From positions 1-60,626 of the IMG/VR virus record IMGVR_UViG_3300008113_004447: a stretch of DNA of 60,626 nucleotides; one strand, 5' to 3'. Below, piece by piece: positions 8,763 through 36,542 of the stretch. Source of the stretch: a virus (taxonomy: Duplodnaviria > Caudoviricetes). Under the pieces are notes generated by a model. The model saw nothing but the letters and a program-made list of their open reading frames with translations. It searched no databases and was not told where the DNA came from. The position numbers and the translations under genes are program-made. How positions within the stretch are numbered: position 1 is the stretch's first letter; every line of letters starts with the position of its first letter.

Positions 8763-9341
8763 TTGGAGCAAAGAGTGAAAAAAGTTGACGATTTTAATGC
8801 GGAAGATCGGATTGATTTAAAATTGCTGGAAAATTCAGTATTTTTCCTCACAGGCGAAATCGCTGAAGAAAATATAGGAAAATGTATAAAGTGGCTGACC
8901 TACGAAAATCTTGACACTAAAACTGAAAAAGTTTTAACACTGTATGTTAACTCAACCGGTGGTGATTTATACCAAGCATTGGCGTTGATTGATATGATGA
9001 CCACTAGCAAGTATACCATACGTACTATTGGCGTAGGTACTGTGATGAGCGCAGCATTTTTAATTGTGGCATCTGGTTCTAAAGGAGAAAGGTATCTTTC
9101 TCAGCATACCAGTTGTATGTGTCATCAATTTGCCGGAGGTGGCAGTGATGCCAAGTTTCATGATCTCAAAGCTGAAATGAAAGAAAATGAAATGTTAAAC
9201 ATTGCAATGACAAATGTTCTAGTAACAGCCACAGGCAACGTGCCCAGTTATGTTAAGAAAAGACTTTTACCACCAACCGACGTGTACATGACAGCAGCCG
9301 AAATGATAGAACACGGTGCTGCCGACTACATCTTAGAATGA
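8763..9341 (+). CDS. clpP: ClpP-like protease subunit
   Basis: YVNSTGG, MSAA (Ser), MCHQ (His), TDVYMTA.E (Asp), final GAADYI. Confidence 0.85.
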   Translation: MEQRVKKVDDFNAEDRIDLKLLENSVFFLTGEIAEENIGKCIKWLTYENLDTKTEKVLTLYVNSTGGDLYQALALIDMMTTSKYTIRTIGVGTVMSAAFLIVASGSKGERYLSQHTSCMCHQFAGGGSDAKFHDLKAEMKENEMLNIAMTNVLVTATGNVPSYVKKRLLPPTDVYMTAAEMIEHGAADYILE

Positions 9342-9348
9342 GGTTAAT

Positions 9349-9591
9349 ATGGAAGTAGTAAGTATTGGCGACAAGAAAGAAAAGAAAAGAAAAGACGACA
9401 TGTTAGAAGTTCTTGATGAGATGCGTCGACAAGTTGAAGCAGGCGAAATAGTTGAATTTGTAGCAACTTCACTTGACAACGATGGTATTGCGCAGATTCA
9501 TATATGTGCCATGGACATGCCTGGCAGCGTCGGACTTTATGAAATAGGCAAGCACTTGCTCATTGCTCAAGAAACATACGTTTTTGATTAA
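9349..9591 (+). CDS. Hypothetical protein
   Basis: GAGG RBS; 80 aa. Confidence 0.65.
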   Translation: MEVVSIGDKKEKKRKDDMLEVLDEMRRQVEAGEIVEFVATSLDNDGIAQIHICAMDMPGSVGLYEIGKHLLIAQETYVFD

Positions 9592-9704
9592 ACGTTGTAA
9601 AAATGCCACATAAAGTAGTCATATTTTTCTTGACTGCTAAATAAAAAGACTACATAATATACACATGTTGTTGATAACCTTTTGTTAAAAAATACAAATA
9701 GTGG

Positions 9705-9733
9705 TTGACAACAAGAACAAAAGAAGTTATACT
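9705..9733 (+). promoter_or_regulatory. Sigma70-type promoter of tRNA array leader
   Basis: TTGACA-17 nt-TATACT. Confidence 0.8.
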
Positions 9734-9765
9734 ATTAACATAGTAAGGAATTAGAGAGAAACAAA

Positions 9766-9906
9766 ATGCAAAACTTATCAAATTTTAGACAACATAATAC
9801 AATAGCCAAACAGGTAGGCGTGCCTTCTTGCTGGTCATTGGATAGTCTATCATATGATCGTTTACCAGCAGAGATTATCTTGGGGTCCACGGAGATGTTA
9901 GTGTAA
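9766..9906 (+). CDS. Putative leader peptide (46 aa) of tRNA-array attenuator
   Basis: MQNLSNFRQHNTIAKQVGVPSCWSLDSLSYDRLPAEIILGSTEMLV; purine-rich RBS; lies between promoter and terminator. Confidence 0.55.
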   Translation: MQNLSNFRQHNTIAKQVGVPSCWSLDSLSYDRLPAEIILGSTEMLV

Positions 9907-9930
9907 CATAAAATACACTTAAACTTCAAA

Positions 9931-9967
9931 GGACCCCAGGATTAAACACCCTGGGGTTTTTGTTTTT
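9931..9967 (+). terminator. Intrinsic terminator (possible attenuator)
   Basis: ggaccccagg...cctggggtt followed by a U-rich tail; 5' arm can alternatively pair with 9877-9888. Confidence 0.8.
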
Positions 9968-9979
9968 GTAAAGGAAAAA

Positions 9980-10156
9980 ATGGAACAGATAGATTACGAA
10001 AAATTGAATCAACGAATTGTTGAACAGGCTTATGAAGCCGCTCTTAGTAATACTCTTACTAAAGAACAGCTTCAAAAACTTATTCAAGATAAGTTTGAAC
10101 GTGCTAGAGTGTATCACGAAGCGTTAGTGAAATCGCCGACGTTTAGTGTAAACTAG
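9980..10156 (+). CDS. Small hypothetical protein (58 aa)
   Basis: AAGGA RBS; MEQIDYEKLNQRIVEQAYEA... Confidence 0.55.
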   Translation: MEQIDYEKLNQRIVEQAYEAALSNTLTKEQLQKLIQDKFERARVYHEALVKSPTFSVN

Positions 10157-10394
10157 TACACCGTGTGAAGATACCAGTAACGAGGACTGGGCCCTGCACG
10201 TAAAACATGGGGCAAACGGGCGGCCTGTAGGATGGAGCACTTCTTCTAGTGTGAAAAATTACAGCGTATTAAAGCATTCTTTAAGAACAGGCAGCCTAAG
10301 TATTTTAGAGTGCTTTAATACACACTCTCTTGTAGCACTAGAAAGATAAACTAGATGTTGACAGCATAGCTGAGAGAGTGTATAGTTAGTACAT

Positions 10395-10480
10395 GGAGGA
10401 ACGGCGCAGTTGGAGGGGCGCGGCAGACTGTAAATCTGTTCTCAAAAGGCTAGTAGGTTCGAATCTTACTTCCTCCACCA
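10395..10480 (+). tRNA. tRNA-Tyr(GTA)
   Basis: Cloverleaf, long variable arm, CCA. Confidence 0.9.
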
Positions 10481-10490
10481 GATTAAAAGT

Positions 10491-10575
10491 GCGACTGTGG
10501 TGAAATAGGTAGACACAAGAGACTTAAAATCTCTCGCCGCAAGGTGTACCGGTTCGATTCCGGTCAGTCGCACCA
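10491..10575 (+). tRNA. tRNA-Leu(TAA)
   Basis: Cloverleaf, CCA. Confidence 0.92.
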
Positions 10576-10583
10576 GAAGTTTA

Positions 10584-10660
10584 GGACTGGTGGCGCAGTT
10601 GGTTAGCGCACATGCCTGTCACGCATGGGGTCGCGGGTTCGAGTCCCGTCCAGTCCGCCA
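10584..10660 (+). tRNA. tRNA-Asp(GTC)
   Basis: Cloverleaf, CCA. Confidence 0.92.
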
Positions 10661-10665
10661 AATTT

Positions 10666-10741
10666 GCTCGGTTCGTCTATCGGTCTAGGACACTGCCCTT
10701 TCACGGCAGGAAGAGGGGTTCGATTCCCCTACCGAGTACCA
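10666..10741 (+). tRNA. tRNA-Glu(TTC)
   Basis: Cloverleaf, CCA. Confidence 0.92.
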
Positions 10742-10746
10742 GTTAT

Positions 10747-10824
10747 GTGTCGGTGGCAGAGTGGCCCATTGCAACGGATTGCAAATCCGTAAAACCGTGA
10801 GTTCAAATCTCACCCGACACTCCA
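10747..10824 (+). tRNA. tRNA-Cys(GCA)
   Basis: Cloverleaf, U73, CCA. Confidence 0.88.
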
Positions 10825-10826
10825 AT

Positions 10827-10900
10827 GTATCCCTAATGTAATGGCAGCATCACAGTCTCCAAAACTGTTCGTCGGGGTTCGAGTCCCTGGGGGTACGCCA
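10827..10900 (+). tRNA. tRNA-Trp(CCA)
   Basis: Cloverleaf, CCA. Confidence 0.9.
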
Positions 10901-10906
10901 ATTAAT

Positions 10907-10996
10907 GGAAGCGTGGCAGAGTCCGGTTTATTGCAACAGTCTTGAAAACTGTCGTGTCGAAAGGCACCGTGAGTTCGAATCTCACCGCTTCCGCCA
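10907..10996 (+). tRNA. tRNA-Ser(TGA)
   Basis: Cloverleaf with long variable arm, G73. Confidence 0.92.
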
Positions 10997-10999
10997 AGT

Positions 11000-11199
11000 T
11001 TTGTAAGTGTTAGCAAGAGAAAGTCACGCTGTCTAGGTTTCTTCGAAGGACTGAAACAGTAGAAGGTGATGGGTTCGACACCCACTAGGTCCATTGAGGC
11101 GACTAAACTGGACCGGTATCCCAAGTAACGTATCCTGACCCTGCCGGCTTTGTATCAAGGGAAAATGGTTGCGATGAGAGGGGCGCAACTACTTACAAA
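11000..11199 (+). ncRNA. Candidate structured ncRNA (unassigned)
   Basis: Closed by tttgtaagt/acttacaaa; internal T-loop-like hairpin tgggttcgacaccca; GC-richer than flanks. Confidence 0.5.
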
Positions 11200-11207
11200 T
11201 TCAATAC

Positions 11208-11282
11208 AGCCTATTAGCTCAGTGGTAGAGCACCGTCTTGATAAGGCGGGGGTCCTTGGATCGTTCCCAAGATAGGCTACCA
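11208..11282 (+). tRNA. tRNA-Ile(GAT)
   Basis: Cloverleaf, CCA; atypical T loop (GGATCG). Confidence 0.85.
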
Positions 11283-11333
11283 ATTTTTTAAAAGGAGATC
11301 TGTCATGACAAGTGACAAGAGTGATAAGATGTC

Positions 11334-11407
11334 GGGGGTATAACTTAACGGTAAAGTAGTAGGCTTTTAACCTATTAATCAGAGTTCGATTCTCTGTGCC
11401 CCTACCA
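11334..11407 (+). tRNA. tRNA-Lys(TTT)
   Basis: Cloverleaf, CCA. Confidence 0.88.
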
Positions 11408-11494
11408 TATAAAAACACATTTATCTCTCACATAGTCGAGAGTAGTAAGGACAGCACACCACCGTTGAGAAAAGTGTTAAGTGTGTTTTTATAT

Positions 11495-11570
11495 GGTAAT
11501 GTAGCATAGTGGCTAATGCAACTGCTTCATACGCAGTCTATCGCTGGTTCGAGTCCAGCCATTACCACCA
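11495..11570 (+). tRNA. tRNA-Met(CAT) elongator or Ile2
   Basis: Cloverleaf, paired 1:72, CAT anticodon. Confidence 0.85.
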
Positions 11571-11576
11571 AATTGT

Positions 11577-11650
11577 TGGGGATTAGTTAAATGGTATAAC
11601 CGCGGATTTTGATTCCGTTATTAGAAGTTCGATTCTTCTATCCCCTGCCA
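11577..11650 (+). tRNA. tRNA-Gln(TTG)
   Basis: Cloverleaf, G73, CCA. Confidence 0.88.
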
Positions 11651-11665
11651 AAAAAGGAGAAATAT

Positions 11666-12196
11666 ATGCCGTGGATACAAAATGTAGCACTTGGTGATAT
11701 CCCAAAAGGACATCACGTGGCAGTGGGTGAAAACTCAATGCTGATTCAAATTGTGGATCCCGAAATGGAGTTCCCTAAACCCAAGCACAAGTTTAAAGAA
11801 GTTCATCAGTTTGAATTTTTAGACATTGAAGCCAACGACTTTACTATCGACGAAGCATTTCGTTGCAGCCAAGAGCAGGCCAACGAGCTGGTTCGATTGT
11901 TGCAACACGCATTAGAGAATCGCATGGATGTTGTTGTGCATTGTCATGCTGGCGTTTGTCGCAGCGGAGCAGTGTGCGAAATTGGTGTTATGCTAGGCTT
12001 TAGAGATACCGAGGCATTCCGCAGTCCCAACCTGTTAGTCAAACATCGCATGATGAGAGCCTTGGGTTGGTTATACGATGAGCAAGAACCCCACACTATT
12101 AATGGTGTGGCAGTTCCCGAAGATTGGTCCAACGACAACGAAAAAGTTTTTACACTTGCGGCTGCAAGACGTAATCGTAGATTAAATGAAAAATAA
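11666..12196 (+). CDS. Protein-tyrosine/dual-specificity phosphatase-like
   Basis: VVHCHAGVCRSGA (HCx5R); AAGGAG RBS before MPWIQNV. Confidence 0.85.
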   Translation: MPWIQNVALGDIPKGHHVAVGENSMLIQIVDPEMEFPKPKHKFKEVHQFEFLDIEANDFTIDEAFRCSQEQANELVRLLQHALENRMDVVVHCHAGVCRSGAVCEIGVMLGFRDTEAFRSPNLLVKHRMMRALGWLYDEQEPHTINGVAVPEDWSNDNEKVFTLAAARRNRRLNEK

Positions 12197-12269
12197 CGGT
12201 CCGTAGCTCAATGGAATAGTTCTGATCTTGGACCCCAACTATTGGGAGTTCGACTTCTTTGCGGTACCA
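12197..12269 (+). pseudogene. Degenerate copy of tRNA-Arg(TCG)
   Basis: cggtccgtagctca...gggagttcga...cca resembles 13260-13334 but anticodon arm and acceptor pairing are broken. Confidence 0.75.
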
Positions 12270-12294
12270 AAAATTACAGAAATAGATATCATCC

Positions 12295-13245
12295 CTATCT
12301 TTGAAATAAGCCAGGTAACTTTTGTAAAAATATTACATCTTCAACTTTTGATTTAACAATAGATTTTAAAAACGCTCGGTGCGGTTTAATAACTATGCCT
12401 ATTGGAAATTCTAAAGGTGGTTTAATTATATTGTGATGAGATACCCATTCTTTAAAATCCTCAGAAGTATATACATCACTTAGGTTATTATCAACATCTA
12501 TATGAAAATTGCCATGCGAGCCAATCCGCCCTGTGCAATCTACACATGCAGGATCATCGTTGTCAAGAAAAGATTGTAAATATGATTTACCAAGTATAGA
12601 ACTATCAAGGAGAACTAACGGTTTTTTAAATTTCTTTTTGTATATTTGATATTTGTAATTTTCTTGTTGTTCTTCTAAATTAAAATCAATCCACGAATTA
12701 TCAGTTGGTGTAGAATTCATTATAACTTGTAAAAATGTCAACGGATATCCTTTTAAGATATTACGATTAACAACCTGTGTATATTGTTCTAAATTATGAA
12801 CTGATTCGTTAATTTGATTCAATAAGTCATGCCAATCTTGGTAACTTGTACATTTGATTTTAAAATTTGGATCAAATGGATTATTGATATTATCTGCATC
12901 ATGGTACCACAATACATTATATGTAAAAAATCTGTGCAATTGATTCAATAATTTTTGATCAAAATTAAAGTATTCAGGTAAATCAAACAAGTCTGTATTG
13001 AATCCAATATCTTTCAATTTTTGTAATGTTAATTTAATATTGTCCCAACTAGAATTTATGTTACTTAATGCATATGGCAACTCGTCTATATTGATTATGT
13101 CCGGTTGATTATGTATATTATTAACCATAGATGCCCTATCAAATCTGCAACTAGAAAATTTTTCAAACCATTTTCTAGTTGCAGAATTATCAAATAATTT
13201 GATATATATAGATTTTTTAGAAATAAATTTAATTCGAATATACAT
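12295..13245 (-). CDS. Hypothetical AT-rich protein inserted antisense in tRNA array
   Basis: ATG (MYIRIKF) 5 nt after minus-strand TAAATA. Confidence 0.75.
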   Translation of the reverse strand: MYIRIKFISKKSIYIKLFDNSATRKWFEKFSSCRFDRASMVNNIHNQPDIINIDELPYALSNINSSWDNIKLTLQKLKDIGFNTDLFDLPEYFNFDQKLLNQLHRFFTYNVLWYHDADNINNPFDPNFKIKCTSYQDWHDLLNQINESVHNLEQYTQVVNRNILKGYPLTFLQVIMNSTPTDNSWIDFNLEEQQENYKYQIYKKKFKKPLVLLDSSILGKSYLQSFLDNDDPACVDCTGRIGSHGNFHIDVDNNLSDVYTSEDFKEWVSHHNIIKPPLEFPIGIVIKPHRAFLKSIVKSKVEDVIFLQKLPGLFQR

Positions 13246-13259
13246 AGGGTTATTTATTA

Positions 13260-13334
13260 CGGTCCGTAGCTCAGTGGAAGAGTTCTGGTCTTCGAAACCA
13301 GCTGTCGGGAGTTCGAATCTCTCCGGACCGGCCA
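13260..13334 (+). tRNA. tRNA-Arg(TCG)
   Basis: Cloverleaf, CCA. Confidence 0.88.
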
Positions 13335-13339
13335 ACAAC

Positions 13340-13416
13340 GGTGACGTTAGTGTTAACGGTCAGCACCACGGATTGTGATTCCGTTAGAATGGGTTCGAAT
13401 CCCATACGTTACCCCA
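13340..13416 (+). tRNA. tRNA-His(GTG)
   Basis: G-1, C73, CCA. Confidence 0.9.
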
Positions 13417-13463
13417 AACATGGCTCTACTCGTTTGACATAGTCGATGCTGTAGAGTTTTTTT

Positions 13464-13555
13464 GCCAGTGAGACTTGGTAGTCAGAGAGGTTTTATAAAC
13501 CTTTTAGCGCCAGATTAGCGTTCTTGAGAGGGTTCGATTCCCTCCGCTGGTACCA
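13464..13555 (+). tRNA. Atypical tRNA with TAT anticodon (Ile?) and long variable arm
   Basis: Acceptor gccagtg/cgctggt, T arm gagggttcgattccctc, anticodon loop tttataa, minimal D arm. Confidence 0.7.
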
Positions 13556-13557
13556 AT

Positions 13558-13633
13558 GCAACTTTAGCTGATGTGGTCATAGCGGTGGTCTGAAGAGCCA
13601 TTGAACCAGGTTCGATCCCTGGAGGTTGCACCA
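13558..13633 (+). tRNA. tRNA-Phe(GAA)
   Basis: Cloverleaf, CCA. Confidence 0.88.
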
Positions 13634-13639
13634 ATCAAT

Positions 13640-13720
13640 GCCCCAGTAGACAAATTGGCAAAGTCGTCTCTCTCAAAAGGAGAAATTTTAATGCGGGTTC
13701 AAATCCCGCCTGGGGTACCA
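13640..13720 (+). tRNA. tRNA-Leu(CAA)
   Basis: Cloverleaf, CCA. Confidence 0.85.
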
Positions 13721-13742
13721 CACATCGGCGATACATAGTAAT

Positions 13743-15338
13743 ATGAAAATTAAAAGTATAACAATTGTAGGTGGCGGGAGTGCCGGTTGGATGACTGCTG
13801 CCGGATTAATTGCACAAGTACCCAACATTGAAATAACTTTAATTGAATCACCAAACATTAATATCATTGGAGTTGGAGAAAGCACACTGGCTGGGTTTAA
13901 TGTGTTTCTTGATGCGCTAGATTTAAAAGACGAAGAATGGATGCCGCATTGCAATGCAACGTACAAGACATCTATTAAGTTTACAGACTTTAAAGAAAGA
14001 TTACAAGAACCTCAAAGTTTTCATTATCCTTTTGGCAGTCCTAAGGTTGATAATAAAAAATTTGGTATTATGGAATGGTTCTTGGCAAAGACCCAAGCCC
14101 CAGAGTTAGCGTCTAATACATTTGCAGAATATTATCACGATAATGTATTGATGACCAATGCTAATAAGTTTACCAACAACAGTCGTAACGAATTATCAAA
14201 TTTTAATTTTACATATGATACTGCGTATCATTTTGATGCAACGTTATTTGGACTTTATCTGCGAGATCACTATTGTAAACCCAGAGGCGTAACACATATT
14301 TTAGCAGAAGTAAAAAATGTGCAAGTTAGCAACAACGGAATTGACAGCATTACTTTAGACAACGACAGTAATGTCTCCTCAGATTTGTTTATCGACTGTA
14401 CAGGGTTTAAATCCTATCTTTTAGAAGAAACGCTAGGAGTAGCATTTAAATCGTTTGGTGATACATTATTAAATGACAGCGCCATTGCTACACATCTTCC
14501 ATACATCGACAAAGAACGAGAAATGGAAAGTGTTACTAACTGTACTGCTATAGAAAATGGCTGGGTCTGGAATATACCTGTATGGAATCGTATAGGAACC
14601 GGCTATGTGTATTCTAGTAAGTTTGCAACACAGGCACAAGCAGAAGAACAGTTTAGACAGCATTTAAAATCCAATCGCATGATTTGTCCAGATAGTGCTC
14701 GTGCTGATGCCGCAGTCTTTAAACATATCAAAATTCGCCATGGTGTTCACGAACGTTCTTGGGAAAAGAATGTAGTGGCCATTGGTCTGTCTAACGGTTT
14801 TATCGAGCCTTTAGAATCAACAGGTTTATTAATTACACATAACTCAATCATGAAGTTAATTGATACACTGCATTTAAAAGACGGTAATGTAAATCAATTT
14901 GATATTGACGTGTATAATTCAACATTCTTAAATGAAATTTTATCGTTTAAAGATTTTGTTAGTATGCATTATGCATTGTCGTCAAGAACGGATACAGAAT
15001 ACTGGCGATATGCAACACAGCAAACAACATATTCTAAGATTTTATCCAGTGGCGAGTGGACTACACTGAGCGACGGATACGTTGAGTTTGCCAAACAGAT
15101 TAATAAAAAAGAATTTGGTATGGATTTAGCAGGATTGATTTATATTGCTGCTGGCATGGGCTATACTCCAATAAGTCCTAGACACATGAAATTTACTAGT
15201 AAACTACATCCGGAAGTGTTAACAGCATTAGAAGTATATAAAAAATCATTAGCACTACACAAAGTTAAGATGGAAAGAAAGATATCTGCAATGCCAACTC
15301 ATTTTGAGTATCTATTAAAAAATATTTACAAACAGTAA
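13743..15338 (+). CDS. Flavin-dependent tryptophan halogenase-like protein
   Basis: GGGSAG, GVGEST, FIDCTGF, GWVWNIP (WxWxIP), FIEPLESTG. Confidence 0.92.
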   Translation: MKIKSITIVGGGSAGWMTAAGLIAQVPNIEITLIESPNINIIGVGESTLAGFNVFLDALDLKDEEWMPHCNATYKTSIKFTDFKERLQEPQSFHYPFGSPKVDNKKFGIMEWFLAKTQAPELASNTFAEYYHDNVLMTNANKFTNNSRNELSNFNFTYDTAYHFDATLFGLYLRDHYCKPRGVTHILAEVKNVQVSNNGIDSITLDNDSNVSSDLFIDCTGFKSYLLEETLGVAFKSFGDTLLNDSAIATHLPYIDKEREMESVTNCTAIENGWVWNIPVWNRIGTGYVYSSKFATQAQAEEQFRQHLKSNRMICPDSARADAAVFKHIKIRHGVHERSWEKNVVAIGLSNGFIEPLESTGLLITHNSIMKLIDTLHLKDGNVNQFDIDVYNSTFLNEILSFKDFVSMHYALSSRTDTEYWRYATQQTTYSKILSSGEWTTLSDGYVEFAKQINKKEFGMDLAGLIYIAAGMGYTPISPRHMKFTSKLHPEVLTALEVYKKSLALHKVKMERKISAMPTHFEYLLKNIYKQ

Positions 15339-15339
15339 G

Positions 15340-15368
15340 TTGACAGACTGTAACGAATCGTATATAAT
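15340..15368 (+). promoter_or_regulatory. Sigma70-type promoter (internal to tRNA array)
   Basis: TTGACA-17 nt-TATAAT. Confidence 0.85.
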
Positions 15369-15403
15369 ATACTTTGTTCATTAAAAATTTAAGTTGTTAT
15401 TTT

Positions 15404-15486
15404 GCCCCGATGGTGGAATTGGTAGACACGCTGGTCTTAGAAGCCAGTGCGCGAGCGTCCGAGTTCGAGTCTCGGTTGGGGCACCA
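15404..15486 (+). tRNA. tRNA-Leu(TAG)
   Basis: Cloverleaf, CCA. Confidence 0.92.
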
Positions 15487-15496
15487 TATAAAAGAA

Positions 15497-15572
15497 GGGT
15501 CGTTAGCTCAGTTGGTAGAGCGTCTGCCTTACACGCAGAATGTCGGCAGTTCGAGACTGTCACGACCCACCA
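15497..15572 (+). tRNA. tRNA-Val(TAC)
   Basis: Cloverleaf, CCA. Confidence 0.92.
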
Positions 15573-15580
15573 AGTATTAC

Positions 15581-15668
15581 GGAGCATTGGCCGACCGGTT
15601 AAGGCAACAGATTGCTAATCTGTCATTCAGCAATGGGTGAGTAGGTTCGATTCCTACATGCTCCGCCA
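15581..15668 (+). tRNA. tRNA-Ser(GCT)
   Basis: Cloverleaf, long variable arm. Confidence 0.9.
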
Positions 15669-15691
15669 ATTTTTAAAAGAGAGAAAAACAT

Positions 15692-15904
15692 ATGAAACCA
15701 GGTCCAAATTATAGAATGAGTTCTTTGACTAAAGCAAGTCTAGCATTGAGTAAAGTACTAGATCCGCATAAACGAGGCGAGTGGAAACGTGCCATGATTG
15801 ATGCAGAATTGAATGCAGCCGTACAACCAAAACGTGAACCACGCAAACCAGGAAATGGTAATTTTACCACCCATGCATCTGGGACCGTGTCTTCAGGAAG
15901 CTGA
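15692..15904 (+). CDS. Small basic hypothetical protein
   Basis: ORF with purine-rich RBS. Confidence 0.6.
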   Translation: MKPGPNYRMSSLTKASLALSKVLDPHKRGEWKRAMIDAELNAAVQPKREPRKPGNGNFTTHASGTVSSGS

Positions 15905-15905
15905 C

Positions 15906-16196
15906 ATGGGCAAGGGATCTAAAGCAAGACCGTTTAGCGTCAGCCAAGAAGAATTTGACAACAGTTTTGAACTTATTTTTGGGAAGAAAGACAAAATGCA
16001 AATACGTGTAAAAGAAGATGTAACAGAATTTGGCAAGTGTGGTTGCGGTCGTAGCCCAACAGGTAAATGTATCGGTTGGCACGGACTCAATGAAGAACAA
16101 CTTAAGGCAGCACGAGATGCATGGGATTTAGCACAGTATCAAAAACAAGCATCAGAGTTGTGGAATAATAGTTGCACTAGTGGTAGAGCAGAGTAA
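15906..16196 (+). CDS. Small protein with CDGSH-like Cys/His motif
   Basis: CGCGRSPTGKCIGWH resembles the C-x-C-x2-S...C-x-G-x-H 2Fe-2S motif. Confidence 0.55.
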   Translation: MGKGSKARPFSVSQEEFDNSFELIFGKKDKMQIRVKEDVTEFGKCGCGRSPTGKCIGWHGLNEEQLKAARDAWDLAQYQKQASELWNNSCTSGRAE

Positions 16197-16202
16197 TGTA
16201 TT

Positions 16203-16278
16203 GGGGGTGTAGCTCATCTGGTAGAGCAGGACCTTTGCAAGGTCAAGGTAGCGGGTTCAAGTCCTGTCACCTCCACCA
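16203..16278 (+). tRNA. tRNA-Ala(TGC)
   Basis: G3:U70, CCA. Confidence 0.92.
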
Positions 16279-16300
16279 ATAATTTAACGAGGATACTAGC

Positions 16301-16486
16301 ATGGCAAAAGGTGCCGGTGGTAAAAATATTAAAACAGCAAGTCCGATGCTAACCCGAAACGGTAAGACACGTTTGGGTCCATTGAATTTAACACAGTTAA
16401 CCAGCATGTTAGAGAAATCTAGCAAGCCAAAAGACAAAGCAAAAATTCAAAGTCGCATTAGAACTTTAGAAGCAAGAACTAAGTAA
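16301..16486 (+). CDS. Small basic hypothetical protein
   Basis: GAGGA RBS. Confidence 0.6.
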   Translation: MAKGAGGKNIKTASPMLTRNGKTRLGPLNLTQLTSMLEKSSKPKDKAKIQSRIRTLEARTK

Positions 16487-16493
16487 CAACGTT

Positions 16494-16569
16494 GCCCCTT
16501 TAGCTCATCTGGTAGAGCAACTGATTTGTAATCAGTAGGTGGTCTGTTCGAGTCGGACAAGGGGCACCA
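16494..16569 (+). tRNA. tRNA-Thr(TGT)
   Basis: Cloverleaf, CCA. Confidence 0.92.
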
Positions 16570-16575
16570 AAATAT

Positions 16576-16651
16576 TCTCCTATAGCTCAGCCGGTAGAGC
16601 GTTTGACTGTTAATCAAAATGTCCGTGGTTCGAGCCCACGTAGGGGAGCCA
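16576..16651 (+). tRNA. tRNA-Asn(GTT)
   Basis: Cloverleaf, CCA. Confidence 0.92.
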
Positions 16652-16666
16652 AAACAAAGGTAATCG

Positions 16667-17284
16667 ATGAAATTTGCATTTTTTAATCCAACAGTAGTTG
16701 CAGTAGATGATGTGCCTGCTGAACTATATACTAACTTTAAAAGTCAAGTAGATTATGCACATCATCAGTCTCAATTTAATGATGCTGGTAATTCTAATAT
16801 CAGTGTTCGTGGCGGACAACAGATACAGCTATTGCCAAACGAATTTGGGTTAGATACTACTGATCTAAAAACGTTTGTTGAATCAAGATGCCGAGTTTAT
16901 ATTGATACTATATTGAAAACATTAGTACGAAATGATCTCAGTGATTATGAGCCTGTATTAATTAGTGCATGGACTATTAGACAAGAAAGTGGTCAGTATC
17001 AAGCATTACATAGTCACGAAGCACACATTAGTGGAAATATGTATATTGATGTTCCAGACTTAGATTTAAATTCAAACAGCAGTGATGCAAACATTGAATT
17101 TAGATTGCCGGTCATTAGAAACCCTTTAAATTTTATTTTTACTGATGCGTGGAGATTTACTCCGCAGCCTATGAAAATGGTAGTATTTCCAAGTCATCTT
17201 CCACATACCGTATATCCGTGGCAAGGACAAGGACACAGAACTATTTTGGCATGGGATGTTAAATTAATTCCAAGAAAAGATTGA
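16667..17284 (+). CDS. Putative 2OG-Fe(II) oxygenase
   Basis: HSH...ISGNMY...VFPSHLPHTV...R.ILAW. Confidence 0.75.
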   Translation: MKFAFFNPTVVAVDDVPAELYTNFKSQVDYAHHQSQFNDAGNSNISVRGGQQIQLLPNEFGLDTTDLKTFVESRCRVYIDTILKTLVRNDLSDYEPVLISAWTIRQESGQYQALHSHEAHISGNMYIDVPDLDLNSNSSDANIEFRLPVIRNPLNFIFTDAWRFTPQPMKMVVFPSHLPHTVYPWQGQGHRTILAWDVKLIPRKD

Positions 17285-17309
17285 CAAACACTCTAAAAAG
17301 TGTTATAAT
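17281..17309 (+). promoter_or_regulatory. Sigma70-type promoter
   Basis: TTGACA-17 nt-TATAAT. Confidence 0.85.
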
Positions 17310-17332
17310 AGTTTTGTTGTGTAGCAATATAC

Positions 17333-17573
17333 AACCGGTAAAGCGAAGGGTAGATGAGAATAGACACAAAGGTGTGAGCTTCATGCTTACTCCAAACTTA
17401 CAACCATCTGAACAATGGAACGTGTTTATGTGATCCGACCCTAATAGAATGTCATTTGTTAATCGGAAATATATGGACCTCTGTGTATTGTATATTGCAC
17501 ATTGTCAAAGGAAGATTACAACCCTTCCGTTGCATATTGTCCGGTCTATTACTTGACCTTTCGTTGACCCGTT
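17333..17573 (+). ncRNA. Candidate structured ncRNA upstream of rpoZ
   Basis: 5' and 3' ends pair (gcgaagggt/acctttcgt; aatagac/gtctatt); own promoter; no ORF in track. Confidence 0.5.
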
Positions 17574-17594
17574 ATTTTTAACTTAAAGGATATC

Positions 17595-17804
17595 ATGGCT
17601 AGAATTACATCACAAAGAGCAGTTGAAGCAATCGGCGGAAACCGTTACGACCTAGTGTTGGCAGCTAGCCAGCGAGCAAGAGAATTGCGTCGCGGAGCAA
17701 CTCCAATGGTTGTATCCGACAACGGTCCAGTAGTTACTGCATTGAGAGAAATCGAACAAGGCAAGTATACTCAATTGGACTATTTAAAATCTATTAGGAG
17801 ATAA
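17595..17804 (+). CDS. rpoZ: RNA polymerase omega subunit
   Basis: MARIT...[16 protein letters not shown]...PVVTALREI. Confidence 0.9.
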
Positions 17805-17805
17805 A

Positions 17806-18378
17806 ATGAATATTTCGTTACGCAAGGCAAACGTCTTGCAGAACTTGATCAATGAAGCTATTCGCAACATTAAGATCACCACCAATATTGAAATCAATGA
17901 ATTTCAAGATCCTGCAATTACATTGCAGACTGCAAACACCATGCTGTTTGAAAACGATGCACGTCGTCAAAAACTGTTGTTGGCGTTATACAACATTCGT
18001 GGACTTGTTGGCACAGCCAATGCTAGTTCAGGAATTGATTTAAAATTAGCAACTGCTGCCTTCGTGGACAAGCGTATCAATCAACTTGAAGACATTACTG
18101 CTCTTTCTCCAATGATGGAAGAACAAGTATTAGTAGGTAAGTTGGATAAGATTCGTAATCGCAAGGACGAAAGTCGTGCAAGTTTGTATGGTCGTGATGA
18201 TACGGTATCTACTAGTGTTGTAAGCCAAGAACAGATCAAAATGGCAAAAGCAGAGGTTCAAAATCTCAAGAAGCAAAAACAGAAAATCAATGATGAGATT
18301 CTTGAGCTCAACATTAAAACTGAGATTCCCCTCAGTGACGATGTAAACGAATTGCTAAAGGTCGAAGGCCTGCTGTAA
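17806..18378 (+). CDS. Hypothetical coiled-coil protein
   Basis: AGGAG RBS; 190 aa. Confidence 0.75.
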   Translation: MNISLRKANVLQNLINEAIRNIKITTNIEINEFQDPAITLQTANTMLFENDARRQKLLLALYNIRGLVGTANASSGIDLKLATAAFVDKRINQLEDITALSPMMEEQVLVGKLDKIRNRKDESRASLYGRDDTVSTSVVSQEQIKMAKAEVQNLKKQKQKINDEILELNIKTEIPLSDDVNELLKVEGLL

Positions 18379-18717
18379 TAAACCCCGCGTTAACTCAGCG
18401 TTAAAGAGTTAGGTGATGGTTGAGTTCCTTAACGACAACTTGGTACATACGGACTTACCACACAGCCCTCCTTAGGGGCCTAGGAAAAAACCGTAGGTGA
18501 GGTCTAACACCTTCCCATAAGAATAAACGTTATGGACAGAGTAACAGCTCAGTCTAGGGCTCATGTGGTGTGAGTAGCTAGACACTTTATAAAAGCTCTT
18601 TGAGCGGCTACAATGGAACTACACTGAACTTGCTATGATACCGGTCGACGCAAGAGGTGCCACGAAGAGTAGGGCCGTCAAGGATTCAAGCGCCACAGAG
18701 AGCCTCTATAAAGTTAT

Positions 18718-18793
18718 CGCGGGATGGAAAAGTTGGCATTTCGTCAGTCTCATAAGCTGAAGGTCGTCGGTTCGAATCCGGCTCCCGCAACCA
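18718..18793 (+). tRNA. tRNA-fMet(CAT) initiator-like
   Basis: C1:A72 mismatch, CAT anticodon, CCA. Confidence 0.88.
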
Positions 18794-18806
18794 ATTTGAG
18801 GACATA

Positions 18807-19556
18807 ATGTTTTTTATCAAACGTAAAAAAATAACAGTTGATTGTTTTATTAACAATCCGGCAATATATGATCTATTCAAAATTGATCATGCACACAAAT
18901 ATGCTCCTAAAGAATGGCGACAACTGCCACCGTTAGTTGATGTAAAGTCACTTCAGGACCCAAAAAGTAAAGAAACCATTCCTGTGCCAACAGCAAAGCG
19001 ATGCGTTGGTATTGTTAACTTGTTTACTACTGGGTTTATAATGCCTTGTTGGAGTGACTTCAAAATTGAAATGATGACTGATGGATTGTTTTACAAGCAC
19101 GATCCTATGAATGACTTAGATGCTAATCCTCATCCTCCGTTTATGTATTGGGATAGCCTGTACAAAGGGTTTCAACATGTAAAGATTTCTAGCCCTTGGT
19201 TAATTAAAGAAAAGACCGGTGTTAATTTTACATGGAATCAATGTACCTATAATAATACTGATCGTCACCAAACGTATCATGCACTATCAGCTGTACTTGA
19301 TTTTAAAGCACAATATAATACGCATCTAAATGTTTTCATTAAAAAAGGATCTACTGTTACTTTTAATGCAGGTGATCCTCTAGTACATTTAATTCCGTTA
19401 TCTGAAAAAGAAGTAGATGTAAAATGTCATCTAATCGACGATACAGAATATGCAAAAATGTCTAACGCATACACACGCAAAAGCATGTGGGCCGGACAGC
19501 ATAGAGCATTGCATAATCAAAAAGAAGAATCTAAATGTCCGTTTGGATTTAAGTAA
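18807..19556 (+). CDS. Hypothetical phage protein (beta-rich)
   Basis: 249 aa; KISSPW...GDPLVHLIP; ends SKCPFGFK. Confidence 0.7.
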   Translation: MFFIKRKKITVDCFINNPAIYDLFKIDHAHKYAPKEWRQLPPLVDVKSLQDPKSKETIPVPTAKRCVGIVNLFTTGFIMPCWSDFKIEMMTDGLFYKHDPMNDLDANPHPPFMYWDSLYKGFQHVKISSPWLIKEKTGVNFTWNQCTYNNTDRHQTYHALSAVLDFKAQYNTHLNVFIKKGSTVTFNAGDPLVHLIPLSEKEVDVKCHLIDDTEYAKMSNAYTRKSMWAGQHRALHNQKEESKCPFGFK

Positions 19557-19562
19557 AAAATT

Positions 19563-19639
19563 CGGAGTGTAGCGCAGTCTGGTAGCGCACCTGGTTTGGG
19601 ACCAGGGGGTCCAAGGTTCGAATCCTTGTACTCCGACCA
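19563..19639 (+). tRNA. tRNA-Pro(TGG)
   Basis: Cloverleaf, CCA. Confidence 0.93.
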
Positions 19640-19644
19640 ATAAC

Positions 19645-20238
19645 ATGATAATAATTGATAACGCATTTTCAGAAAGTATATTCAAAAAAATACAAGAAGA
19701 AATTCTTGGATTTGGATTTGATTGGCATTACGGCCGCAGAGTCAATGAAGATGACGGTTCTAATGAAAATAGTTTTTTAATTGGGTGGGTACACACTGTT
19801 GCTGACTCGGGATTAGAACAAAAATTTACTCCCGAACTGTATTCACTAATCGAGTCTGAATTATCTAAAGTATTAGCTAACAATAATGAACCCTGTGTTG
19901 AAATAGGCAGGGTAAGAATAATTTGTAATACAACTGCAGATAAGTCATATATCACACAACCACATGTTGATTTTGATAATACTCATCAAACAGTTTTGTT
20001 ATACATAAATGATGCCGACGGTGATACTATTATATACAATGAAAAATTCAAGCCGGGATTGGGTATTGGTTCAGTGCAACTATGCAAGTCTATCAAACAC
20101 AAATTAACAGTTAAAGCAGAGATTACACCAAAGGCAAATAGATTAGTTATTTTCAATGGATTACATTATCATAGTGGTACTACTCCGACAGAATCAGATC
20201 GTCGTGTAGTCATGAATATCAACTACAAACAGAAGTAA
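19645..20238 (+). CDS. 2OG-Fe(II) oxygenase
   Basis: PHVD...LLYINDADGDT...NRLVIFNGLHYH...RVVMNIN. Confidence 0.85.
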   Translation: MIIIDNAFSESIFKKIQEEILGFGFDWHYGRRVNEDDGSNENSFLIGWVHTVADSGLEQKFTPELYSLIESELSKVLANNNEPCVEIGRVRIICNTTADKSYITQPHVDFDNTHQTVLLYINDADGDTIIYNEKFKPGLGIGSVQLCKSIKHKLTVKAEITPKANRLVIFNGLHYHSGTTPTESDRRVVMNINYKQK

Positions 20239-20257
20239 GATTAAATAAAAGAACAAT

Positions 20258-20331
20258 GCGGGGTTAGTTTAATGGTAAAACAGCAGATTTCCAATCTTCG
20301 GTCGAGAGTTCGATTCTCTCACTCCGCTCCA
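20258..20331 (+). tRNA. tRNA-Gly(TCC)
   Basis: Cloverleaf, U73, CCA. Confidence 0.88.
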
Positions 20332-20344
20332 TACAAAGGACACA

Positions 20345-20962
20345 ATGAGCACTGAACATTATTATGGCAACTTTCCTAATTTGGGATTTGTAGGCGCTAC
20401 GCTGTCCGAAGAAGAAGTAAGTACTATCAAAGCAGAAATTGCAGACATACAGGCCAACTTTGACACTGCTGAACAAATACATCACAGTCATGCTGGCAAT
20501 ATCAAAAAAGAATACACACTGACAAAATCGCTGCCTGCAATCTTCGATGCAGTAGTTCCGCTAGTAACAGAATATCAAAAGGTTTTTGATTTTGGGTTGA
20601 AAGGTGAGCACCAGTATGCTATTTCTACAGCATGGGTTAACTTTCAAATTAAGCATGAATTCTTTACCGGACACACTCATCAAGGCTTGTTCAGTTTCGC
20701 TCTTTGGGTACAAGTGCCATACACTATTGCGGAAGAACAAGAATACTGTTCAACTCAAGACAAATATATTAACACTATACCTTCATTTAATTTCCATTAT
20801 ACAGATGCGCTAGGACGTATTCGTCCTTGGGTTATTCCAGTAGATTCTACCTTTGAAAATAAAATTGTAGTATTTCCCGGCCCAATGACCCATTCAGTCA
20901 ATCCGTTTTACAGTTCAGATGGATATCGTATTGCTGTATCGGGAAATATTGACTATGCCTGA
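20345..20962 (+). CDS. Putative 2OG-Fe(II) oxygenase
   Basis: WVNFQ...HTH.GLFSF...FPGPMTHSVNPF...RIAVSGN. Confidence 0.8.
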   Translation: MSTEHYYGNFPNLGFVGATLSEEEVSTIKAEIADIQANFDTAEQIHHSHAGNIKKEYTLTKSLPAIFDAVVPLVTEYQKVFDFGLKGEHQYAISTAWVNFQIKHEFFTGHTHQGLFSFALWVQVPYTIAEEQEYCSTQDKYINTIPSFNFHYTDALGRIRPWVIPVDSTFENKIVVFPGPMTHSVNPFYSSDGYRIAVSGNIDYA

Positions 20963-21533
20963 TACTGTTATCGATTCTAACGATGTTTTTCGCAAGTTTG
21001 ATTTTAGTTCCACGATTACAGAGCAAGACAATCAAACAGCAATAGATATTGTTAAACAGATAATTGCCGCTGGCAACTATTTTAAAAATAGTCCACCATA
21101 CCAGACACAAGAAAATATCTTCAGCAGACCCGAAGCTGTTTGGTTAAAGTATCGAATGAGTTTCTTATTCAGTGTATTCATGTATTTGGGCCGCGAGGTT
21201 CGAGTATCTGAAATGATGGCTTGGTCATTTATGACCAATTTAGATACAGTAGAAAATCGAGATACATATTGGCACAATCATTGGCACCCAAAAAATCCAG
21301 ATAGTAAAATGATGAGTGGTATTATGTATTTGCATATTCCGCAAGATGTTAAGAATCGAGATACTTGCGGTACTGAAATGGCTCCTAACGGACCAGACGG
21401 TGACGAAAAGTTTTTTGTACGTCCTAGTGATTACACTTGGTTAATTTATCCTAGTGATCAATGGCATAGGCCAGGCATAGTTCAGAGTGCCGATTATAGA
21501 TTTATTATTGCGGCGGATATAGAATATCAATAA
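20955..21533 (+). CDS. Putative 2OG-Fe(II)/cupin-fold oxygenase
   Basis: WHNH...MSGIMYL...YPSDQWHRPG...RFIIAAD. Confidence 0.7.
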   Translation: MPDTVIDSNDVFRKFDFSSTITEQDNQTAIDIVKQIIAAGNYFKNSPPYQTQENIFSRPEAVWLKYRMSFLFSVFMYLGREVRVSEMMAWSFMTNLDTVENRDTYWHNHWHPKNPDSKMMSGIMYLHIPQDVKNRDTCGTEMAPNGPDGDEKFFVRPSDYTWLIYPSDQWHRPGIVQSADYRFIIAADIEYQ

Positions 21534-21537
21534 TTCT

Positions 21538-21612
21538 CTGGCGTTAGTATAATGGATAATACAGTAGCCTTCTAAGCTATCAATAGAGGTTCGATTCCTC
21601 TACGCCGGACCA
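21538..21612 (+). tRNA. tRNA-Arg(TCT)
   Basis: Cloverleaf, CCA. Confidence 0.9.
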
Positions 21613-21619
21613 GTATTAT

Positions 21620-21695
<76 letters not shown>

Positions 21696-21728
21696 ATTTA
21701 TTAGTAAATAATATACCGATATCCCCAC

Positions 21729-21757
21729 TTGACACACACGCAAAATGATGCTATAAT
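21729..21757 (+). promoter_or_regulatory. Sigma70-type promoter
   Basis: TTGACA-17 nt-TATAAT. Confidence 0.85.
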
Positions 21758-21793
21758 ATTTAATGTAAAAACATAAAGTTGAAGGAAGAATGT

Positions 21794-22045
21794 ATGATTA
21801 AAGAATACGAAAGCATTCAAGGTGACAATTTAGAAGAAGCCGACATGGCTCAATTGCTGTCAGTGACTGCTAACGCAGATGCGGTAGCACGAGTTCGGGC
21901 TGCTATTCCAACAGGCCCCAGTCAAAGTCACTGTGACGAATGCGGTGAAGAGATTCCTTTAGCAAGACAACAGGCACTACGTGGTTGCAAGACCTGTATT
22001 GATTGCCAAAATTTATTAGATAGACTTAAGAAAAATTACGGGTAA
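21794..22045 (+). CDS. DksA/TraR C4 zinc-finger protein
   Basis: EEADMA...HCDECGEEIPLARQQALRGCKTCIDCQ. Confidence 0.88.
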   Translation: MIKEYESIQGDNLEEADMAQLLSVTANADAVARVRAAIPTGPSQSHCDECGEEIPLARQQALRGCKTCIDCQNLLDRLKKNYG

Positions 22046-22116
22046 GCCTGTGGCATCTATGCAACACCCCGTTGATTTTGGTTGACGGGGTTTCTTTTTG
22101 GTGTTACAATAGACAA

Positions 22117-22317
22117 ATGATAGAAGTAAAAAGCAAAACAAAAACACAAGAATTTGAAACATTAGCCCTGGCAATGGCATGGGCTAAAGTAACTGGAGAA
22201 TTTGTTACTATTCAAGTTAATGGAATGGAACTTGTAGGCAAGTTTGGGGCAGACAGCATTGTTGACGGCAAATGCCCAGACGGTGTTGATTATACTTGGA
22301 AAAAACGAAGAATTTAA
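22117..22317 (+). CDS. Hypothetical protein, probably leaderless
   Basis: ATG 6 nt after TTGACG-17 nt-TACAAT. Confidence 0.65.
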   Translation: MIEVKSKTKTQEFETLALAMAWAKVTGEFVTIQVNGMELVGKFGADSIVDGKCPDGVDYTWKKRRI

Positions 22318-22333
22318 AAGAATAGGGGGCATT

Positions 22334-22939
22334 ATGCCAGCAGTATTTTTAGTAAGCGATACACACTTTGGTCACTCGGGTGTTTGCCGCTTTACCGAAG
22401 CAGACGGAGTAACAAAAATTCGCCCGTGGACTGATCCAGACGAAATGGACGAAGCCATGATTGCCGCTTGGAACGATCGCGTTCGACCCAACGACAAAGT
22501 CTACCACTTGGGTGATGTTGTTATCAATCGTAAAAGTTTAAAAACTTTAGCACGTTTAAACGGAGACAAAGTGTTGATCCGAGGTAACCATGACATTTTT
22601 CGAGACGACGAGTACCGCGAATACTTCCGAGAATTACGTGCTTACCATGTTATGAATGGAATGATTTTAAGTCATATTCCCTTGCACGAAGCAAGTTTAG
22701 GTCGTTTCGGTGTTAACATCCACGGACACTTACACACAAATCGTGTGTTGAAAGCTCGTGGTGTTGATGCTAAAACAGGTGCTACATTATACAGTGACGA
22801 AATCGATGTTAGGTATCATTGCGTATGTGTGGAACAAATCCCAGACTTTGCACCTATTTTGTTTGAAGATGTTATCAAACGCATCGAAGCAGAAGGTGGT
22901 GTAGTAGGCTTTAAGAACGGTAATGGACCTACAATGTAG
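22334..22939 (+). CDS. Calcineurin-like phosphoesterase
   Basis: SDTHFGH, YHLGD, GNHD, SHIP, HGHLH. Confidence 0.9.
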   Translation: MPAVFLVSDTHFGHSGVCRFTEADGVTKIRPWTDPDEMDEAMIAAWNDRVRPNDKVYHLGDVVINRKSLKTLARLNGDKVLIRGNHDIFRDDEYREYFRELRAYHVMNGMILSHIPLHEASLGRFGVNIHGHLHTNRVLKARGVDAKTGATLYSDEIDVRYHCVCVEQIPDFAPILFEDVIKRIEAEGGVVGFKNGNGPTM

Positions 22940-22942
22940 TAC

Positions 22943-22972
22943 AAGATAGGGCTCTTAGAGCCCTATCTTTTT
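22943..22972 (+). terminator. Intrinsic terminator
   Basis: aagatagggctc-tta-gagccctatctt followed by T run. Confidence 0.85.
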
Positions 22973-23045
22973 GACTGTTTTTTCTAGGTTTATATGTTGA
23001 GCACCGGCATAAATACAACATAATTGAAAAATCAGGAGTGCTAGA

Positions 23046-36504: not shown

Positions 36505-36542
36505 GAAATATTTATGTGATACTTTAATGGTGTAAATAAAAC

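Follow-up and report, generated by a model that had tools for sequence, protein, structure and literature searches.

Attenuators of the trpL, hisL, pheL, thrL and ilvL type share a promoter, a short open reading frame (ORF), a terminator, and an antiterminator whose 5' strand lies within or next to the ORF. The position of the ribosome picks the fold, and a ribosome at the stop codon favors termination (this is well established; see also the abstracts of PMC1183508 and PMC3082878). A module of promoter, ORF and terminator with such an alternative pairing is found at 9705-9972 of IMGVR_UViG_3300008113_004447, a 60,626-base IMG/VR record of a virus (Duplodnaviria; Caudoviricetes). We will refer to the whole record as the window. 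With an estimated completeness of 16%, the record represents only part of a very large phage genome. By comparing the window to related loci, we arrived at the proposal that this region acts as a ribosome-mediated transcription attenuator and heads a stable-RNA operon, which comprises a gene for a 58-amino-acid protein (ORF58), a structured RNA, and transfer RNAs (tRNAs). We estimate the probability of this reading at roughly 0.6.

In the narrow sense, the phage region is not a trp/his attenuator: codon runs are absent, a region 1 is not established, and the target genes are not biosynthetic. The leaders of trpL-type attenuators contain runs of codons for one to three regulatory amino acids, while the phage leader has about one codon for each amino acid. 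The trpL-type systems control biosynthetic enzymes, while the phage switch precedes tRNAs, a structured RNA, and a small protein. Furthermore, the phage leader lacks an established region 1 (anti-antiterminator), so a phage leader that is not translated should read through rather than terminate.

Other attenuators resemble the phage region in other ways. In how it would operate, the region is closer to the ribosome-stalling attenuators of resistance genes (bmrB-bmrCD, vmlR, and mef/mel). In these, the leader reports a general slowing of the ribosome, as proposed here, and stalling favors read-through; but these systems respond to drugs and control efflux or ribosome protection, instead of preceding a tRNA operon (excerpts of PMC4191407, PMC9226507, and PMC4335068). 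T-box riboswitches make antitermination ahead of translation-related genes depend on the tRNA pool, as the phage switch would, but they bind one uncharged tRNA directly and have no ORF. Neither a T-box nor any other Rfam family matched the switch at E values of up to 1 (9000-23000 was searched). In pyrBI and pyrE, coupling between the ribosome and the polymerase at a leader ORF decides termination, as we propose here, but the logic is opposite: a close ribosome prevents the terminator from forming, and the signal is the supply of nucleotides. We know of no description of selection for a complete set of amino acids in the resistance-gene attenuators.

The leader and its two competing folds

The elements of the module in the window are:

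9630..9658, + strand: promoter-like site, the upstream and weaker member of a tandem pair, 10/12
9705..9733, + strand: main leader promoter, TTGACA-N17-TATACT, 11/12
9766..9906, + strand: leader ORF, with an ATG start, 46 codons plus stop, and all 20 residue types
9877..9888, + strand: 5' strand of antiterminator helix P1 (codons 38-41), which pairs with 9931-9942 over 12 base pairs (bp) including one G-U
9891..9927, + strand: inner part of the antiterminator, with P2 (9891-9894/9924-9927) and the apical hairpin P3 (9900-9905/9914-9919)
9930..9969, + strand: intrinsic terminator, with an 11-bp stem (9930-9940/9950-9960), a loop of 9 nucleotides (nt), a folding free energy of -16.9, and a T-rich tail
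9931..9942, + strand: shared segment, which is the 3' strand of P1; bases 9931-9940 double as the 5' arm of the terminator (10 shared bases)

Promoters are scored by matches out of 12 to the sigma-70 consensus, and sites with at least 10/12 will be called promoter-like.

A preliminary description of this DNA, made from its letters alone, had already reported a sigma-70 promoter at 9705-9733, a 46-codon ORF at 9766-9906, a strong terminator at 9931-9967, and a pairing of 9877-9888 with 9931-9942 that would make the two helices mutually exclusive. We confirmed all of these. The preliminary description also interpreted the region as a translational attenuator that senses all amino acids and gates the tRNA array; this interpretation is partly supported by the comparisons below.

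The terminator ends in T5-G-T5 (9957-9967). A pattern scanner omitted it, solely because its loop is longer than the scanner's limit of 8 nt. If the transcript is cut ahead of the terminator's 3' arm, then its minimum-energy fold is a stem-loop with three tiers (P1, P2, and P3), of which P1 is the base. The predicted free energy of this fold is -30.0, and its z score is -4.8 to -5.2 relative to shuffles of the ORF part. The stop codon (9904-9906) sits within P3. Another hairpin was seen by eye around codons 17-21, and its register differs between groups of relatives. When the window was searched with the covariance model that is described below, the switch was detected only once.

Tandem promoter sites are also present in relatives, such as L003 and L022 (at 2613-2641 and 2698-2726). 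A promoter-like site is present within 140 nt 5' of the leader's ATG in 55 of the 56 distinct relatives that we compared for promoters and tRNAs.

Conservation and covariation in relatives

We collected relatives by using ORF58, the first gene 3' of the terminator, as the anchor. This gave 35 loci from viral contigs and 65 from metagenome contigs. Three loci were dropped because their upstream sequence was not usable (L069, L083, and L091, whose match lies at the locus edge). The usable set of 98 loci, including the window, contains 74 distinct leader-plus-terminator sequences, 71 distinct coding sequences, and 69 distinct peptides. Some analyses used a first-round set of 28 variants, and the comparison of promoters and tRNAs used the 56 distinct loci that have a tRNA within 1500 nt. 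(An 80-amino-acid upstream ORF has four related loci; these were left out of the counts.) More broadly, a profile search of a large protein collection assigned the leader family to 273 protein clusters, and with at least 74 distinct DNA versions, it occurs in uncultured giant phages from freshwater.

All 98 loci have an ORF of 33-52 codons, beginning with ATG, and a terminator just 5' of the anchor gene. The end of the ORF is 15-29 nt from the terminator arm. Each of the 74 distinct sequences has a T-tract and a terminator free energy of -12.9 to -23.9. In truncated transcripts, at least 6 bases of the terminator arm are paired with the last ~30 nt of the ORF in 74/74 sequences (at least 7 bases in 73), and the stop codon lies between the two strands of P1 in all 74. 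The antiterminator fold is predicted to be more stable than the terminator in 71/74, with a median z score of -4.9. The same three-tier stem-loop was found in 28/28 of the first-round variants. The preliminary description had suggested aligning the regions upstream of related tRNA arrays. In our 98 loci, the leader ORF, the terminator, and the competing helix were always kept, and the helix covaries.

For the 28 variants, the RNAalifold consensus includes 12 pairs in the terminator, 3 of them with compensatory changes. When run on the whole 28-sequence MAFFT alignment, RNAalifold reported the terminator only, because MAFFT left the strands of the antiterminator out of register. So we relied on folds of individual sequences and on a covariance model instead. 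In the covariance-model alignment, which was fitted to the structure (26 plus-strand rows, 25 of them distinct; pairs were counted by a script), double-sided changes are present in 3/7 pairs of P1 and 3/4 pairs of P2, and nearly all cells are paired. The covariance model also gave 12 hits on the reverse strand, so only plus-strand rows were counted, and it failed to detect two relatives. These two, L015 and L036, have wholly different yet complementary strands at the equivalent place. We also used a test that does not depend on any alignment: in 61 of 65 cases, the ORF strand pairs better with its own partner than with partners that have a different arm, by 4.2 kcal/mol on average.

The leader varies as though the peptide itself matters little. 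Its frame is open in 71/71 distinct coding sequences, while the +1 and +2 frames are open in 0/71 (3.9 stops on average). Diversity at codon positions 1, 2, and 3 of the leader is 0.41, 0.35, and 0.41. For ORF58, these values are 0.27, 0.20, and 0.36, which is the pattern of a protein under purifying selection. Among the first 28 variants, the identity of the peptides has a median of 41% and falls as low as 8%. The reading frame of the C-terminal part even varies between groups, while the paired bases are retained. Equal variation at the three codon positions, combined with an open frame, argues that translation matters and the peptide does not. So, as judged from these patterns, the leader ORF is kept for the act of translation rather than for its product.

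The region 5' of the ORF differs between clades. In a distant clade (L080, L095, L096, and L098-L104), only about 7 nt separate the -10 hexamer from the leader's ATG, and the mRNA would therefore be leaderless or nearly so. In the main clade, there is a 5' region of 25-60 nt, often with a covarying hairpin at the extreme 5' end.

Most of the longer leaders contain all 20 amino acids

As the preliminary description had noticed, the first 36 codons of the leader in the window include all 20 amino acids. Given this phage's composition, a random 36-mer would do so with a probability of 0.0056, and a random 46-mer with a probability of 0.045; 3 of 73 small ORFs in the window contain all 20 types. 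So completeness in the window is modest evidence by itself, and the weight comes from the relatives. Put differently, the preliminary description's suggestion to compare the leader to random ORFs yielded a mildly unusual result for the window alone, while the diversity among relatives goes far beyond nulls that preserve the phylogeny.

Among the distinct leaders with at least 42 codons, 50/55 contain all 20 types, as do 25/28 in the first-round set. The expected share per sequence is 3-9%. For a null that accounts for shared ancestry, we kept the partition of the sequences at each column (that is, which sequences share a residue) and relabeled the residues at random. For the 55 leaders, this gave a mean of 4.2 complete leaders with the proteome's composition or 7.1 with uniform composition, and the maximum in 10,000 draws was 34. 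Across the 28- and 55-leader sets, the means of this null range from 2 to 7. When columns were shuffled in the 28 leaders, 4.6 were complete on average, and never more than 12 in 2,000 draws.

The leaders exceed these nulls because residues that occur just once relocate among columns while their presence is kept. Cys occurs exactly once in 50/55 leaders, but it is spread over 13 different columns. The sole residue uses 9 columns for His, 7 for internal Met, 6 for Phe, 6 for Lys, and 5 for Tyr. Even between the close relatives L003 and L004, Tyr was lost at one place and gained at another. There are no runs of codons for regulatory amino acids in the leaders: a typical leader uses most types between one and three times, and for Cys, His, Trp, and Tyr, a single occurrence is the rule.

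Complete sets also occur in leaders of just 35 and 38 codons (L088, L051, and L097), with chance probabilities of 0.004-0.01. The profile search of the protein collection provided further sequences: of the 120 clusters that were listed among the 273, 117 were new, and 95 of these have 42-53 residues. Of these 95, 68 contain all 20 types. As a control, 0/70 variants of ORF58 are complete, with 15-19 types each. Judging from these comparisons, the amino-acid completeness of the leader is selected. The claim that the leader represents all of the amino acids holds for the longer leaders (50/55), and it breaks down for the leaders with 38 or fewer codons (3/14).

The codons are diverse as well. The window's leader contains the codons that the preliminary description had named from split families (Leu TTA/TTG/CTA, Ser TCA/AGT, Arg AGA/CGT, Ile ATA/ATT, and Gly GGC/GGG), and under strict wobble rules, it touches 25 of the 26 anticodon classes of the tRNA array. 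Summed over the 28 leaders, the coverage of tRNA classes is 667, as compared to 617.8 ± 7.3 from synonymous resampling. For Leu, Arg, Ile (ATA plus ATY), and Gly, leaders draw on both codon boxes above expectation. Given the shared ancestry of the rows, we treat these results as no more than supportive.

What the terminator might control

Downstream of the terminator, the window contains:

9980..10156, + strand: ORF58, the first gene 3' of the terminator, which encodes a conserved small protein of 58 amino acids
10163..10290 (approximately), + strand: conserved structured RNA between ORF58 and the tRNAs, with 23 predicted pairs, 14 of them with compensatory changes
10358..10386, + strand: extra promoter ahead of the first tRNA, 11/12, which is 9 nt 5' of that tRNA (10395)
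10395..21695, + strand: tRNA array with 27 genes, which together serve all 20 amino acids, with protein genes and promoters interspersed

The preliminary description had placed the tRNA array right after the terminator. In fact, ORF58, the structured RNA, and the promoter at 10358-10386 intervene. It had also warned of internal promoters at 15340 and 17281, and both are present, with scores of 12/12.

The terminator lies in line between the leader promoter and these genes. tRNA genes are downstream in every locus that is long enough to show them. In 42 of the 56 distinct loci, the stretch from the terminator to the first tRNA is free of promoter-like sites. In these, the first block of tRNAs appears to be reachable only via the terminator, which makes it an attenuator by position. 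The other 14 loci, including the window, do have such a site. Thus, the idea that the switch gates the tRNA array is supported by position in 42/56 relatives, but it may apply only in part to the window, which has its own promoter at 10358-10386. In the window, the predicted switch certainly gates ORF58 and the structured RNA only, and would merely add to the transcription of the tRNAs.

The RNA evidence consists of contigs that were assembled from RNA libraries (four coded runs); DNA carry-over is possible, and the contigs do not show the ends or levels of transcripts. Similarly, uncovered stretches (e.g., 9504-9656 and 10269-10370) and the depths of contigs are uninformative about ends or levels. 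At the leader, contigs cover 9666-9982 with 0 mismatches, 9796-10090 with 1 mismatch, and 9938-10108 with 0 mismatches; the latter two span across the terminator. Contigs cover 10163-10265 in all four runs.

ORF58 has no significant match in Pfam, PHROGs, or Atlas, and the structured RNA has no match in Rfam. A stretch that matches the structured RNA is also found after the 58-amino-acid gene in L003-L036. By eye, we noticed a possible pseudoknot in this RNA. The tRNA cluster of phage T4 encodes stable RNAs (species 1 and 2); like the RNA at 10163-10290, these are structured non-tRNA RNAs that lie among phage tRNA genes. The comparison bears on this RNA and not on the switch.

In relatives, RNA-library contigs from runs X15, X16, and X20 join 9961 to 10163, which omits the 201 nt that hold ORF58. 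The loose ends of contigs suggest that a few dozen other letters may take its place. Because these contigs join the end of the terminator to the structured RNA, the switch exists without ORF58 as well.

A proposed mechanism

We propose that transcription starts at the tandem promoters. As the polymerase proceeds, the last ~30 nt of the leader ORF would pair with 9924-9942 to form the three-tier antiterminator. Since the antiterminator would form first, is predicted to be the stronger fold, and would hold 10 bases of the terminator's 5' arm, the default would be read-through. The stop codon is within the stem-loop, so a ribosome could not finish the leader without opening the 5' strands of all three helices (P1, P2, and P3). 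The shared segment would then pair with the 3' arm of the terminator, and transcription would stop. If the ribosome is absent, late, or stalled upstream, then the antiterminator would stay intact and transcription would continue. This presumes that the ORF is translated, that its translation is coupled to transcription, and that the response runs in this direction.

Because the leader has about one codon for nearly every amino acid, and most tRNA classes are sampled, slow decoding of almost any type of codon would lead to more read-through. The transit time of the ribosome would sample the whole decoding system, and the switch would adjust the supply of phage tRNAs to the general capacity for decoding. 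As for the natural trigger, starvation or anticodon nucleases, as raised in the preliminary description, might be responsible.

Several observations weigh against our proposal. The sequences are related to each other, so each count across relatives overstates the number of independent events. In the phage collection, which may lack close records, we found no cultured match to the leader peptide, ORF58, the structured RNA, or a neighboring protein of 537 amino acids. Ahead of the leader's ATG, the match to a Shine-Dalgarno sequence is weak. Full-length folds did not include a consistent upstream "region 1" partner for the antiterminator strand, and helices that were predicted inside the ORF as pause signals have double-sided changes in 0/10 pairs. 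The promoter at 10358-10386 adjoins the first tRNA, so in the window, tRNA output need not depend on the switch.

Completeness also has exceptions. Leaders of up to 38 codons have 16-20 types; ten distant relatives with 33-34 codons have 16-19, as compared to a random expectation of about 16. Among the 95 newly listed clusters with 42-53 residues, exactly one type is absent from 26 and more than one type from 1. (Counting all 98 listed members of this length, including 3 that we had already analyzed, the absent type is Cys in 19, Val in 8, and His in 1.) And if we consider only the sensing zone, meaning those codons whose first base is at least 13 nt 5' of the antiterminator strand (13 nt being the assumed footprint of the ribosome), then among 60 leaders of the main clade, 39 have 19 types, 14 have 18 types, and just 6 have all 20. 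In 41 main-clade leaders, Glu is the type that is left outside of the zone. A ribosome that stalled at this Glu, within 13 nt of the antiterminator strand, would not leave the strand free.

We also considered that the leader might mirror the phage's own set of tRNAs. A simple match of this kind seems unlikely from the one incomplete leader on a long record: the leader of L020 lacks Phe only, while its record, which is 46% complete, lacks tRNAs for seven amino acids (including Phe, His, Gln, Lys, Val, and Pro).

Alternative explanations

The region might instead be an ordinary gene for a small protein, with its own promoter and a leaky terminator. The stem-loop would then stabilize the 3' end or be an RNase processing site that splits the mRNA from the tRNA precursor, and the downstream genes would be expressed by constitutive leak-through. 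The ORF is indeed conserved and is annotated as a "hypothetical protein" in public sets (the 273 clusters), with nearly invariant columns for Trp, Asp, and Arg; the terminator is strong in every relative; and the tRNAs of the window have a separate promoter. However, the leader ORF has no match to any family in Pfam or PHROG, its three codon positions vary about equally (unlike those of the neighboring ORF58), and the frame of the C-terminal part shifts among relatives while the paired bases stay. Its rare residues also move between columns while their presence is kept, and a stabilizer would not need a conserved helix that always overlaps the terminator arm. So we consider a small-protein gene to be unlikely. 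The conserved columns could also be explained if the leader were a sensor that acts by arrest of the nascent peptide, as in TnaC or SecM. In this scenario, a Trp and the motif Asp-Arg-x-Pro-Glu, 5' of the antiterminator strand, would make the ribosome stall when a particular ligand or state is present, and completeness would be secondary. The pattern may be comparable to the Trp, Asp, and Pro of TnaC. In the main clade, all leaders have the Trp, and the fixed columns just 5' of P1 that hold Asp, Arg, Pro, and Glu show 87-96% conservation. But the codons of this motif are conserved at their third positions too, so the constraint may be on the RNA or the codons. Furthermore, the motif is absent from L014, L015, L029, L036, and the short-leader clade, all of which keep the switch, and arrest would leave the relocation of the single Cys, His, Tyr, Lys, Phe, and Met unexplained. 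We view an arrest peptide as even less probable than a small-protein gene.

About as improbable as an arrest peptide is a post-transcriptional role, in which read-through is not the regulated step. One possibility is that the folds govern how well ORF58 is translated, or its stability; another is that the terminated leader, at ~230-300 nt, is a dual-function small RNA. The ribosome-binding region of ORF58 begins about 5 nt past the T-tract, the contig that covers 9666-9982 matches with 0 mismatches, and many relatives have a 5' hairpin that is typical of stable RNAs. On the other hand, neither predicted fold pairs with the start region of ORF58, contigs from relatives show the module without ORF58, and in 42/56 relatives, the tRNAs have no other visible promoter. 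None of these alternatives accounts both for single-copy residues that relocate and for a helix that always overlaps the terminator.

Neighboring genes and other features of the array

One of the array's tRNAs (13464-13555) is 92 nt long, with a long extra arm and the anticodon UAU. ARAGORN calls it as Ile, and its best match in Rfam is tRNA-Sec, at 33.8 bits, which is below the threshold. Relatives keep this tRNA (L003 3991-4082, L005 3472-3563, L020 4214-4305, and others). A long-arm tRNA that reads AUA is unusual.

Five relatives have permuted genes for transfer-messenger RNA (tmRNA) 0.3-2.5 kilobases 5' of the leader:

L008 902-1318: permuted tmRNA
L011 1565-1981: permuted tmRNA
L015 2232-2658: permuted tmRNA
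L021 49-447: permuted tmRNA
L027 630-1061: permuted tmRNA

We found no permuted tmRNA in the window itself.

Immediately past the last tRNA, at 21729-22091, there is a promoter (12/12), a gene for an 83-amino-acid zinc-finger protein of the DksA/TraR type (Pfam, E = 1e-10), and a strong terminator. We considered this as a second leader unit and rejected it, as the ORF is the DksA/TraR zinc-finger gene. In bacteria, proteins of this type act on RNA polymerase at the promoters of stable RNAs.

Among the tRNAs (11609-21533), the window encodes a protein similar to dual-specificity phosphatases, a flavoenzyme similar to tryptophan halogenases (E = 7e-106), and four proteins similar to 2OG-Fe(II) oxygenases. 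Just 5' of the leader region is a gene for a ClpP-like protease (8763-9341; Pfam, E = 1e-28). At least five radical-SAM-like genes are clustered on both strands of 31305-44793.

Implications for phage tRNA arrays

More tentatively than for the attenuator itself, we suggest that the leader is a "decoding-capacity meter": the time that ribosomes take to transit the leader might set the transcription of the phage's tRNA operon, as a homeostat for the whole tRNA pool. If so, then the homeostat could answer the depletion or cleavage of the host's tRNAs, with a sensing logic that is undescribed for attenuators. A leader that was selected to have one of each amino acid would show that the textbook device for sensing one or a few amino acids can read global translation capacity. 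And residues that are conserved by presence instead of by position would be a rare and clean sign that selection acts on translating the ORF and not on the peptide that results. The module is only ~350 nt and has consensus sigma-70 signals, so it should be directly testable.

The roles of phage tRNAs in codon adaptation and in escape from defenses that cleave tRNAs are under active study (excerpts of PMC11555353 and PMC11464382). Our literature search, which covered titles and the openings of abstracts, turned up neither a leader of this kind nor any attenuator ahead of phage tRNA genes. If our proposal is correct, then it would provide the first regulatory logic for phage tRNA arrays, for which the control of expression is largely unknown.

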